Assembly (NCBI GenBank): GCA_001303185.1
Contig: LJNP01000001.1
Span: 1 to 62,749 of the forward strand
Length of the DNA: 62,749 bases
From: Parcubacteria bacterium SG8_24
GTDB taxonomy: Bacteria; Patescibacteriota; Patescibacteriia; SG8-24
Direction: 5' to 3'
Numbering within the stretch: position 1 is the stretch's first letter; the number at the start of each line of letters is the position of its first letter. This document shows positions 33,897-36,994 of this stretch, piece after piece. The notes under the pieces are model-generated. The model made no database searches, had not been told where the DNA came from, and saw nothing but the letters and a program-made list of their open reading frames with translations. The position numbers were made by a program, and so were the translations under genes.

Positions 33897-34454
33897 ATGG
33901 CAGAAGATTTCATCACGCCGTACCGGACGGAGTTCGAGAAGGTGATCGAGTTCCTTAAGGCCGAGATGGCCCAATTGCGGACCGGACGGGCCAATCCGGC
34001 GCTGGTCGAGGGTATCCAGGTCGAAGCCTATGGCGCCAGGACCCCCCTGGTCGGATTGGCTTCCATCACCACGCCTGACGCCCGGACGATAACCATCGAG
34101 TCCTGGGACAAGAGTGTCGTCAAGGATATCGAGAGGGCCATACTCGAAGCCAATATCGGCCTGACTCCCAATGTCGCCGGACAGGTCATCCGGATATCGC
34201 TGCCCCCGCTGACCGAAGAGGGCCGCAAGGACCTGCTCAAGGTCCTGGGCGATAAGTTGGAACACGCCCGGATCGGTATCCGTAAGGTCAGGGACGAGAT
34301 CAAGTCGGAGATCGTCGAGGCGGAGAAGGAGAAACTCATCGGGGAGGACGAGAAGTACAAGAGCCTGGAGGATCTGGACAAGCGGGTAGGGGAATGGAAT
34401 CAGAAGATCAGGGAAATGGGAGAGGAGAAGGAGAAGGAGATCATGACTATCTGA
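33897..34454 (+). CDS. frr: Ribosome recycling factor
   Basis: 185 aa, LRTGRANPALVEGIQVEAYG...NIGLTPN...IRISLPPLTEE.R..L.K. Confidence 0.95.
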   Translation: MAEDFITPYRTEFEKVIEFLKAEMAQLRTGRANPALVEGIQVEAYGARTPLVGLASITTPDARTITIESWDKSVVKDIERAILEANIGLTPNVAGQVIRISLPPLTEEGRKDLLKVLGDKLEHARIGIRKVRDEIKSEIVEAEKEKLIGEDEKYKSLEDLDKRVGEWNQKIREMGEEKEKEIMTI

Positions 34455-34514
34455 TACTGGTCGGCGACGGAGCCGGGCACGGATCGGACCACGTCCCGTA
34501 AGTATAATTACGAA

Positions 34515-34543
34515 GACCTCGACGGTTATGTCGGGGTCTTTTG
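34515..34543 (+). terminator. Rho-independent terminator after frr
   Basis: Stem GACCTCGAC/GTCGGGGTC (one G-U pair) with loop GGTTAT, followed by TTTTG. Confidence 0.7.
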
Positions 34544-34605
34544 ACGTACCTGTTTCTAATTTTAAGCTCAACTGGTCGGATTTAATCACTATTTGTCAGT
34601 GACCA

Positions 34606-34634
34606 TTGACAAAAATAGGAAGGTATGGTATGGT
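34606..34634 (+). promoter_or_regulatory. Near-consensus sigma70 promoter (TTGACA-17-TATGGT)
   Basis: TTGACA at 34606-34611, a 17-nt spacer and TATGGT at 34629-34634. It lies between the frr terminator and an ORF-free structured region. Confidence 0.5.
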
Positions 34635-34728
34635 ACCAGGTCATCGTTCGGTACAACCTGTCCCGGCCAGAGGAATGGAGGGGGGTCTACCCCGTGATCC
34701 AGGGCTTCAGTCCGCGGGTCACGGGGCG

Positions 34729-34839
34729 GCGCCGACATCGGTTACCACCGGTCTCGACTGGAGGTATCCCATGGAAGCGCCACACCGGGGAACCACATAA
34801 CGGTCACCCTCGGTCCCGTCTCCAGCCCTCTTTCCGGGA
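34729..34839 (+). repeat. Module copy 1 of an internal ~110-nt duplication
   Basis: The 55-nt core at 34729-34783 matches 34960-35014 at 52/55 positions. The following ~55 nt show about 70% identity and end in the shared CCGTCTCCAG....TTTCCGGGA. Confidence 0.85.
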
Positions 34840-34959
34840 GCAGAAAGTCACGGCGACACATTTTTCGCCGGACTCGTTCATTAAACACGCTTCCCGGGAA
34901 GCGTCATGGAGGGGGACTCGCCTTGCGGGGACGGACAGCGGTCCGCATCCTGCAGGCAG

Positions 34960-35069
34960 GCGCCGATATCGGTTACCGCCGGTCACGACTGGAGGTATCC
35001 CATGGAAGCGCCACGCTCGGGCGCCTTGACCGGCTACCCTGAGCTCCGTCTCCAGGACGTTTTCCGGGA
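34960..35069 (+). repeat. Module copy 2 of an internal ~110-nt duplication
   Basis: See copy 1. The offset is 231 nt in the same orientation. Confidence 0.85.
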
Positions 35070-35482
35070 ATGGGGAAAATCGGAAGAGGTGAGGGCCTTG
35101 GGTCGACCGGGGCGGTGCGGCCCGTTGACGAGGGCTCGCTGAGCGAGCTTGACGTCCAGGTCAGGCATCGACGGCACGACCGTCTGGCTCAAGCCTCATC
35201 CAGAAGTCAGTCTGCGGGACATCCCGCGCCAGATACGGCGGTCCGCCGGAGATCGGCCGCCCGGAGGCCGCAGAGTATGAGTCATACTCTGTGCCTGATC
35301 GGGCCTGCCGACGGCGTTATGGCCGCCGACCGGACTGCGGAGTACAGGCACTCGTGGGCTCCGGATGGGCCCGTGCCGACCGCAGACTGACTTCACCTTC
35401 GGGCGGAGCGCCCACCAAACCCAAGCCGGGTAATAATGCCCGAGCGTGGCGCTCCGCCCCCCCCCACGACTTGAATAGAATT

Positions 35483-35525
35483 GACCCCGCGGCCGCGGTA
35501 CTTGGCTGCGGGGTCTTTCCTTTTG
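35483..35525 (+). terminator. Rho-independent terminator ending the non-coding unit, 75 nt upstream of glyQS
   Basis: Stem GACCCCGC/GCGGGGTC (35483-35490 / 35508-35515), followed by TTTCCTTTTG. Confidence 0.8.
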
Positions 35526-35599
35526 TCCGGTCTGTTCGAACATCCTTGTCGCGGACGCCGCCTTATGGTACCGTCTTTTAAGCTGACCGTTAGCGTCGT

Positions 35600-36994
35600 A
35601 TGGCCGACATCGAAACCCGCCCGGAACTGATGGAGAAGATCGTCGCTCTGGCCAAGAGGCGCGGTTTTTTGTATCCCGGTTCCGAGATCTACGGCGGCGT
35701 CGGCTCGACCTACGACTACGGACCGCTTGGGGCGCTGCTCAAGATGAACGTCAAACAGGCCTGGTGGAAGTCGGTCGTGGAGCGGCGCGACGACGTCGTC
35801 GGTATCGATTCGGCGATCATCATGCATCCCAAGACCTGGGAGGCTTCGGGGCATCTGCAGGGCTTCACCGACCCCCTGGTCGACTGCAAGGGGTGCCGTA
35901 AGCGGTTCCGGGCCGATCATCTGCTGGAGGGAGAATCGGCCGGTATGCCCGGACTGAAGGAACGACCCAAGGACATCAAGGAGGTCCGCTGTCCGGAGTG
36001 CGGCGGCGAGCTTACCGACGTCCGCCAGTTCAACCTGATGTTCAAGACCTTCATGGGGCCGGTCGAAGACGAGGCTGCGGCGACTTATCTGCGTCCGGAG
36101 ACGGCCCAGGGGATATTCGTCAACTTCGCCAACGTGCTGCAGACCTCGCGGCTGAGGGTGCCTTTCGGTATCGCCCAGATGGGCAAGTCCTTCCGTAACG
36201 AGATCACGCCCGGCAATTTCATCTTCCGCACCCGCGAGTTCGAGCAGATGGAGATGGAGTATTTCGTCAAGCCGGGCACCGACGAGGAATGGTTCGAATT
36301 CTGGAAGGGCTTCATGATGGATTGGTTCGTCTCCCTCGGCGTCAAGGAAGAGAATCTCCGTTTCCAGGAGCACGACAAGGAGGAGCTGTCGCATTACTCC
36401 AAGCGCACGGTCGACCTGGAATACCGCTTCCCTTGGGGCTGGGCCGAACTCTGGGGTTGTGCCAACCGGACCGATTTCGACCTGAAGCAGCACGCCGCGC
36501 TCAGCGGCAAGGACCTGAGTTATCGCGATCCGGTCACCGGCGAGAGTTACGTGCCCTACGTAGTGGAACCGGCCTTGGGCACCGACCGGGCGGTGTTGAC
36601 TTTCCTACTCGACGCCTACGAGGAGATCGAAGGCGGCCGGACGACCACTACCGAGTCGGTCAAGGAGGTGGAAACGGTCCTGCGGCTCCATCCGGCCCTG
36701 GCTCCGGTCAAGGCGGCGATACTGCCGCTCTCGAAAAAAGAGCCGTTGGCGGCCCTGGCCCGGGAGATCCGCGACAGCCTAGCCGGACGACATTCAGTCC
36801 AGTACGACGACACCGGTTCCATCGGCCGACGCTACCGGCGTCAGGATGAGATCGGTACGCCGTACTGCATCACGGTCGATTTCGACACGCCACAGGACCG
36901 GAAAGTGACGGTCCGCGACCGCGATACCATGGAGCAGGAGCGGGTGCCGATAGACGACCTCGGGCCGATGCTCGCCGAGAAGGTCGGTATCTGA
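35600..36994 (+). CDS. glyQS: Glycine--tRNA ligase (alpha2 type)
   Basis: GFLYPGSEIYGG..STYDYGPLG and the class II motif FRNEITPGNFIFRTREFEQMEMEYF. 464 aa. Confidence 0.95.
   Translation: MADIETRPELMEKIVALAKRRGFLYPGSEIYGGVGSTYDYGPLGALLKMNVKQAWWKSVVERRDDVVGIDSAIIMHPKTWEASGHLQGFTDPLVDCKGCRKRFRADHLLEGESAGMPGLKERPKDIKEVRCPECGGELTDVRQFNLMFKTFMGPVEDEAAATYLRPETAQGIFVNFANVLQTSRLRVPFGIAQMGKSFRNEITPGNFIFRTREFEQMEMEYFVKPGTDEEWFEFWKGFMMDWFVSLGVKEENLRFQEHDKEELSHYSKRTVDLEYRFPWGWAELWGCANRTDFDLKQHAALSGKDLSYRDPVTGESYVPYVVEPALGTDRAVLTFLLDAYEEIEGGRTTTTESVKEVETVLRLHPALAPVKAAILPLSKKEPLAALAREIRDSLAGRHSVQYDDTGSIGRRYRRQDEIGTPYCITVDFDTPQDRKVTVRDRDTMEQERVPIDDLGPMLAEKVGI

Follow-up and report, generated by a model that had tools for sequence, protein, structure and literature searches.

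Lineage-restricted bacterial RNAs that combine an intricate fold and strong covariation with a partly conserved gene neighborhood are exemplified by the raiA motif RNA, OLE, ROOL and GOLLD, none of which has a known biochemical job. A different arrangement is found in tandem riboswitch aptamers (glycine, TPP and others), in which two homologous domains with conserved junction nucleotides are placed on one transcript and both copies are kept by selection. Tandem sibling sRNAs such as PrrF1/PrrF2 and OmrA/OmrB are adjacent, co-oriented paralogues with one near-identical segment and an otherwise diverged sequence; they are marked by recurrent duplication and homogenization, and read-through produces a longer composite RNA. 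These are short Hfq-type base-pairing sRNAs, each driven by its own promoter. In type III toxin–antitoxin arrays (ToxI and relatives), a promoter is followed by tandem RNA repeats, with units of ~36 nt in the known antitoxins, and by a small protein gene. The CPR/Patescibacteria constitute a large share of bacterial diversity and have tiny genomes; to our knowledge, almost no regulatory RNAs have been described in them.

Here, we describe a locus of Parcubacteria bacterium SG8_24 that almost certainly carries two tandem copies (W1 and W2) of a real, conserved and hitherto undescribed structured RNA. The locus lies in a stretch of 62,749 nt, the whole of which is referred to as the window. The RNA shares with raiA, OLE, ROOL and GOLLD the restriction to one lineage, the intricate fold, the strong covariation, the partly conserved neighborhood and the lack of a known biochemical job, the raiA motif RNA (~200 nt) being nearest to it in size and gene-like behavior. 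It differs from all four in having no sequence or structure match in Rfam 15, in belonging to another phylum, the Patescibacteria, and in its simple four-way junction with tetraloop-capped arms, which habitually occurs in two or three tandem copies. With tandem riboswitches it has in common the two homologous domains on one transcript, the conserved junction nucleotides and the selection on both copies, but it is set apart by the absence of an Rfam match, a 21-bp closing stem (P1/P1b), the lack of a coherent regulated gene set, the absence of any ORF before glyS in one third of the genomes of its family, and a copy number that varies from one to three between close relatives. The likeness to tandem sibling sRNAs extends to the adjacent co-oriented paralogues, the single near-identical segment, the recurrent duplication and homogenization and the composite read-through RNA; unlike these sRNAs, the modules have one visible promoter between them, and each forms a closed junction fold of 178 nt with no obvious single-stranded seed. 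Many relatives show the order promoter, tandem RNA repeats and small protein gene known from ToxI arrays, but the present unit is five times as long, the protein lacks conservation and is missing from this genome, and single-copy loci are common.

The two modules reside in a gap of 1146 nt without genes, between frr and a class-II tRNA synthetase gene that is read as glyQS/glyS from its sequence, the Pfam matches being limited to tRNA-synt_2b and the anticodon-binding domain (Table 1). A repeat search of the window revealed three collinear direct-repeat pieces in this gap, with offsets of 230–231 nt. The direct repeat noticed in the initial annotation is real, its 55-nt core being identical at 52 positions as claimed. 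The boundaries given there, enclosing a unit of ~110 nt, cover only the 3′ two-thirds of each copy and miss the 5′ third. Since the three collinear pieces include this 5′ third, the unit is ~178 nt long (177–179 nt, ~179 nt in the first copy) rather than ~110 nt, and the second copy is offset by 231 nt. A genome-wide search identified W1 and W2 as the sole copies in the 1.1-Mb genome. Both match a covariance model built from orthologues at 135–136 bits, with an E-value of ~1e-33 that lies far beyond chance, even though E-values from the models built here are rough.

Table 1. Features of the non-coding unit and its surroundings in the window, followed by examples, among others, of the small ORF in related loci (positions within the locus named). 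E-values from covariance models built here are rough.
Feature	Positions	Strand	Remarks
frr	33897–34454		Pfam RRF, E 1e-52
TTTTAAGCT, upstream occurrence	34561–34569
Promoter of the non-coding unit	34594–34634	+	−35 TTGACA 34606–34611; 17-nt spacer with TG; −10 TATGGT 34629–34634
Palindrome TGTCA-N7-TTGACA	34594–34611		overlaps the −35 box
Repeat piece, 5′	34661–34684 / 34892–34915		offset 231 nt; 79% identical
Repeat piece, middle	34728–34790 / 34959–35021		63 nt; 90% identical
Repeat piece, 3′	34801–34839 / 35031–35069		offset 230 nt; 74% identical
Module 1 (W1)	34661–34839	+	covariance model R3, 135.3 bits, E 1e-32
W1 P1	34661–34673 with 34827–34839
W1 P1b	34676–34685 with 34815–34824
W1 P2	34692–34725
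W1 P3	34728–34781		apical hairpin 34748–34761
W1 P4	34786–34812
Linker	34840–34891	+	52 nt; small hairpin and leader-like GTTCATTAAA
Module 2 (W2)	34892–35069	+	covariance model R3, 136.2 bits, E 6e-33
W2 P1	34892–34904 with 35057–35069
W2 P1b	34907–34916 with 35045–35054
W2 P2	34923–34955
W2 P3	34959–35012		apical hairpin 34979–34992
W2 P4	35017–35042
3′ extension of the same transcription unit	35070–35482	+	GC-rich, very stable fold
Long-range helices in the 3′ extension	35203–35217 / 35380–35394; 35401–35412 / 35448–35459		perfect
Intrinsic terminator	35483–35525	+	13-bp GC-rich stem, then U-run; ends the unit
TTTTAAGCT, downstream occurrence	35577–35585
Class-II tRNA synthetase gene	35600–36994		Pfam tRNA-synt_2b and anticodon-binding domain only
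Small ORF, locus L010	1815–2273
Small ORF, locus L011	887–1369	−
Small ORF, locus L012	1748–2101
Small ORFs, locus L018	1736–2200; 2352–2831
Small ORF, locus L021	2075–2509
Small ORF, locus L022	1729–2118
Small ORF, locus L034	1719–2114

By alignment and RNAalifold, each module adopts the same four-way junction, composed of P1, P1b and the arms P2, P3 and P4. P1 (13 bp) is made by the two ends of the module and is separated by a 2×2 internal loop from P1b, an invariant helix of 9 bp with the strands UGGAGGRGGA and UCCGUCUCCA (5′ UGGAGG-R-GGA, 3′ UCC-G-UCUCCA). The three arms, P2, the three-segment P3 and P4, usually each carry a UUCG-type tetraloop as a cap, and within the apical P3 hairpin, CGG-YUYCGR-CUG, an invariant G·U adjoins an invariant G–C. 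Conserved nucleotides concentrate at the junction, and no pseudoknots are predicted in the module. The four-way junction is obtained for both modules by MFE alone (z = −6.1 for W1 and −6.6 for W2), and both are still predicted to adopt it within the full transcript of 885 nt. The reverse complement of the module fold is also module-like.

The fold is borne out by homologues. In an alignment of 34 copies, drawn from 23 related genomes, standard pairs fill 91.3% of cells as opposed to 35–50% in slid controls, compensatory changes on both sides occur at 44 of the 55 pairs, and none of 500 shuffles reaches any of the pairing measures, with the proviso that this alignment was fitted to the covariance model and leans to the model structure, which somewhat inflates pairing. 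Earlier alignments made with MAFFT only had already yielded 30 compensatory pairs out of 54 and 34 out of 55, and 45 copies from outside the family, absent from model building, show 87% pairing. Every helix covaries with the exception of P1b. Throughout the class, the P1b strands UGGAGGRGG / YCUCCA are invariant, as are, in the apical P3 hairpin, the G·U (40 of 41 copies) and the G–C (41 of 41). The initial annotation had proposed that compensatory changes be sought in homologues, and these are found at the 44 pairs just mentioned, in a fold other than the one it had drawn. Its two helices, ATCGGT/rCCGGT and CTGGAG/CTCCAG, have at most one compensatory pair among the 34 homologues, which is not above shuffles. 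The supported fold assigns these strands other partners: CCGGU joins ACUGG in the apical hairpin, AUCGG is matched to the CCCAU side of P3, and CUCCAG to an upstream AUGGAG (34675–34680 and 34906–34911) that lies outside the segment originally considered.

A comparison of W1 with W2 yields ten base pairs that are changed on both sides; all ten still pair, with no pairing lost through a double change. It follows that selection for the fold acts on each of the two copies and that, taken as a whole, the duplication is not a recent one. Together with the covariation in homologues, this upholds the earlier suggestion of tandem structured-RNA domains as opposed to a recent neutral duplication. Identity between the two copies is distributed unevenly, amounting to 0.93 in P3, 0.83 in P1b, 0.69 in P1, 0.53 in P4 and 0.42 in P2, and outside P3 it is 0.60, compared with 0.62–0.66 to copies from other genera. 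Mosaic identity of this kind is also found in other tandem pairs: in genome G014, P3 is identical (1.00) and P2 diverged (0.17), and in genomes G010 and G018, P2 reaches ~0.9 and P1 ~0.35–0.4. The near-identical segment had been taken for a strictly conserved core; its reading as a selected core is not supported, since P3 evolves no slower than the other arms between orthologues and other genomes homogenize different arms. In a tree of the copies, two old paralogue clades are common to six genomes, and at least four lineage-specific pairs exist besides, W1/W2 being one of them. This is most simply read as repeated duplication, or as two copies that have long coexisted, accompanied by patchy gene conversion. 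The pair in the window would represent an old duplication whose P3 arm either was recently homogenized by gene conversion or has kept its identity because both copies fit the same partner. To judge from the sequences, patchy gene conversion looks to explain the P3 identity at least as much as the alternative, selection for arms fitting the same partner, two copies alone being insufficient to separate these. In this family, the concerted and patchwise evolution of tandem RNA paralogues can be seen in a clean natural setting.

The promoter upstream of W1 scores 10/12 against the consensus and is the sole such site within 34300–35750; transcription presumably starts near 34641. The same TTGACA / TGnTAtAgT promoter, often with the palindrome, is also located upstream of the first copy in orthologous loci. 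Neither a promoter nor a terminator was detected in the linker between W1 and W2, and the two modules are probably co-transcribed. The leader-like GTTCATTAAA of the linker is found 5′ of P1 in orthologues. Downstream of W2, the same transcription unit continues into a 3′ extension with a fold of −257.7 kcal/mol (z = −7.7), in which perfect long-range helices occur, and ends at a strong intrinsic terminator that stands ~410 nt 3′ of the second module. The extension has no homologue in relatives, BLASTN matches being limited to the modules, and contains no convincing ORF (an ORF at 35070–35390 lacks a Pfam match); it sits in the slot that holds a small ORF in relatives. A third, degenerate or antisense module was searched for in 35070–35525 and is absent even with the search filters off. 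An inverted match of 16 nt (35007–35022 / 35438–35453) does not form in the MFE structure of the full transcript. The palindrome TGTCA-N7-TTGACA at the −35 box of the module promoter occurs once in the 62.7-kb window, at one of the six consensus-like promoters present there, and recurs at ~13 orthologous promoters in the family (L003, L012, L013, L015, L018, L027, L034, L036 and others); as read from the sequence, it may serve as the operator of a dimeric regulator.

In total, 79 copies were found in 52 loci from 52 genomes, all belonging to one class of Patescibacteria (Candidatus Uhrbacteria and relatives). Two or three copies are present at roughly half of the loci, and the copies are co-oriented in every multi-copy locus. 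Within the family of the window's genome, the RNA is present in 23 of 24 genomes, including all 20 of high quality, and in the sister family of the order it is present in 11 of 13. Strict filters recovered it from 22 further genomes of the class, representing at least 13 families; detection beyond the order is patchy, and this spread is a lower bound given the strict filters and a model biased to one family. In a phylum-wide sample of 400 genomes, matches to this model are confined to genomes of the same class. The module occurs singly in other genomes, a point that the initial annotation had raised: BLASTN of the unit against 60 relatives returned the module only, as a single copy, in eight genomes of the same family, nearly all of these loci being placed between frr and glyS. 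In locus L102 (genome G279), from a distant family of the class, three co-oriented copies occupy positions 1501–1671, 1700–1867 and 2434–2597, so arrays can exceed two. All loci examined from genus g18 of the sister family (L039–L045) contain a heterodimer that is fixed in composition and made of two diverged types of module, in which copy A begins with ..AUGGUGGGUU.. and copy B with ..UUGGAGGAGUGC... One consensus promoter precedes the two, which lie 7–30 nt from each other, and downstream comes a hypothetical protein of ~310–345 aa with a low-complexity tail.

The novelty of the RNA rests on searches of Rfam 15, IMG/VR and the literature. With Rfam 15, tRNAs alone reach the gathering score anywhere in the window, the region of the modules has no match at E-values up to 10, and 20 + 6 homologous loci have none at the gathering score or at E-values up to 5. 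IMG/VR holds no copy detectable by a pattern that recovers most family copies, the positive control having worked, and a phage or mobile origin was rejected on the basis of this lack of a match. Exact-pattern scans of metagenome contigs returned no closer relatives and one chance match inside a coding region. The literature searches made on RNA motifs of CPR/Patescibacteria, Uhrbacteria and Parcubacteria yielded nothing relevant.

With respect to the genes that follow the RNA, the 24 family genomes fall into two groups. In 16 of them, a member of a small, divergent ORF family lies within 5–400 nt downstream. The encoded proteins, of 117–185 aa, have the N-terminal motif ..GET.E..L.A.A.. and an acidic C-terminus and lack a Pfam match. 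In the other eight, which include the window's genome, no small ORF of this kind comes after the RNA, and in most of these a dedicated terminator directly after the RNA precedes glyS; no homologue of the small ORF family was found in the window's genome. Taken more broadly, an RBS-bearing ORF is located 5–150 nt downstream, with no promoter in between, in about two thirds of the family genomes and in most other families, where the downstream ORFs encode unrelated hypothetical proteins that belong to no Pfam family. The frr/glyS synteny is limited to one family, and no glyS is found within 1.5 kb in other families. Its neighbors being unrelated or absent, the RNA is far more conserved than anything adjoining it.

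Because eight of 24 genomes lack the small ORF, the downstream ORFs are unrelated and synteny is limited to one family, we favor the view that the module RNA is a stand-alone, strongly transcribed non-coding RNA and would not sense signals on behalf of a single downstream gene. The complete statement, comprising the tandem RNA family, a stand-alone partner-binding mechanism and the history proposed above, is assigned a probability of roughly 0.5. The invariant P1b and the apical P3 hairpin would provide the surface that is recognized by a partner in the cell, for which a protein is the likeliest candidate. With one binding unit per module, the tandem pair would supply two sites per transcript. 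The 5′ and 3′ ends would be locked in the 21-bp P1/P1b stem, which would make the RNA more stable and would also end transcription at loci with a U-run after it. A closing stem of 21 bp seems too stable for the P1 of a ligand-switched riboswitch; in the predicted fold, it looks constitutive rather than switchable. Some observations run against this mechanism. The RNA is physically a 5′ leader in those loci where an RBS-bearing ORF follows without an intervening promoter, the P1b strands resemble a Shine–Dalgarno sequence paired with its complement, as would befit a switch acting on translation, and the U-run after P1 is confined to part of one family.

The main rival, possible but unlikely, is a cis-regulatory leader, which could be a tandem riboswitch, could bind a protein or could switch by sequestering the SD sequence. 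The junction of each module would be the site at which a signal is sensed, and the presence of two would sharpen the response. In one version, the upstream GGAGG would hold the CCUCC-like 3′ strand of P1b, which when free could mask the RBS of the downstream ORF; in another, P1 together with a U-run would terminate transcription. The order promoter, module(s), RBS and ORF, seen with the spacing given above at many loci, would fit such a leader, as would the clustering of conserved nucleotides at the junction and the known use of tandem aptamers in riboswitches. A U-run stands directly after P1 in many family copies, but only in part of one family. The leader would also explain why P1b is invariant whereas all other helices covary, since an SD-like strand would be paired with its complement. 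However, the downstream genes share neither a function nor a Pfam family, and the eight family genomes without a downstream ORF before glyS, most of them with their dedicated terminator, still keep the fold by compensatory changes. The closing stem, at 21 bp, is far above the length of a switchable riboswitch P1; P1 and P1b (13 + 9 bp) are predicted to be closed both in the isolated module and in the full transcript. Neither a short switchable P1 nor a coherent downstream gene set, as expected of a riboswitch, is seen. No conserved alternative anti-terminator or anti-sequestor pairing was found, and no Rfam riboswitch matches even at E-values of 5–10. The special case of a T-box leader of glyQS was rejected: RF00230 has no match, the terminator stands between the unit and glyS, other ORFs intervene in relatives, and there is no linkage to glyS outside one family.

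It is improbable that the RNA is a new, abundant, self-contained class of one CPR class whose two-domain tandem particle normally binds a core machine of the cell, such as RNA polymerase, the ribosome or the SRP/translation apparatus, and thereby replaces a 6S/SRP/tmRNA-type RNA missed by standard models in these genomes. Distinctly improbable is the related proposal of a lineage-specific stand-in for an undetected housekeeping RNA such as 6S or SRP RNA. This proposal draws on the lack of any match to the Rfam models of 6S, small SRP and large SRP RNA in the 24 family genomes, 22 of which yield RNase P RNA, and on the absence of a tmRNA, by ARAGORN, from the window's genome; the RNA, moreover, is near-universal in the order, ~180 nt long and equipped with a consensus promoter. 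6S RNA is a rod with a large central bubble, whereas the module folds into a four-way junction, and RF00013 is empty in the 24 genomes. Neither the module nor its class-wide consensus contains the helix-8 motif of SRP RNA, in which a GNRA loop is combined with AGCA-type internal loops; the motif did not turn up in regex scans of the genome, and RF00169 and RF01854 are empty in the 24 genomes. An identity with 6S, SRP RNA or tmRNA was rejected, the fold and motifs being unfit. The patchy detection beyond the order speaks against a replacement as well, and several RNAs missed at once suggest general divergence or limits of tool sensitivity instead. The 6S and SRP RNAs of the 24 genomes and the tmRNA of the window's genome are either highly divergent or missed by the searches.

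A two-component cassette, in which the RNA would operate with the small downstream protein either in the manner of a type III toxin–antitoxin system or as an RNP with the GET.E..L.A.A protein, is very improbable. It is recommended by the succession of promoter, tandem RNA repeats, weak terminator and small ORF in the 16 family genomes and by genome G007, in which the RNA–ORF unit itself is duplicated, but the protein is absent from the window's genome and from seven others that keep the RNA, the downstream proteins of other families are unrelated, many genomes have a single copy, and a unit of 177 nt with a complex fold contrasts with the ~36-nt units of known type III antitoxins. Finally, the probability is negligible that the repeat is protein-coding, is a piece of some dispersed or mobile repeat, or arose by recent neutral duplication in tandem: the offset of 231 nt equals 77 codons and is thus a multiple of 3, a mechanical ORF of 134 aa covers both repeat cores and P3 is 93% identical, but the other arms are only 42–69% identical with 10/10 double changes compensatory, the genome has two copies, syntenic in the family and with none in viral contigs, and the ORFs lack Pfam matches. 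A coding repeat was rejected in particular because conserved-anchor spacings in homologues are not multiples of 3 but spread evenly over all residues mod 3, the frame from a conserved AUG hits a stop within the module in 37 of 54 copies, and none of the mechanical ORFs across the non-coding unit matches Pfam. A dispersed repeat of the MITE/REP type was rejected on account of the two genome copies, the syntenic frr–glyS position across the family and the empty IMG/VR search. The initial annotation was therefore right to treat the unit as non-coding and to set it apart from coding sequence and dispersed repeats.

Present in nearly every genome of the order and detectable across the class, the RNA is folded as precisely as a riboswitch or ribozyme. 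Driven by a consensus promoter and repeatedly duplicated in tandem with both copies maintained, it is unlikely to be idle in a genome of 1.1 Mb. For the favored stand-alone RNA, the identity of the partner could expose a layer of RNP biology or gene control specific to this lineage, whose members are very hard to study. As a minor observation, the word TTTTAAGCT flanks the non-coding unit on both sides, and akin words such as TTAAGCT(T) are found upstream of the promoter in several relatives.
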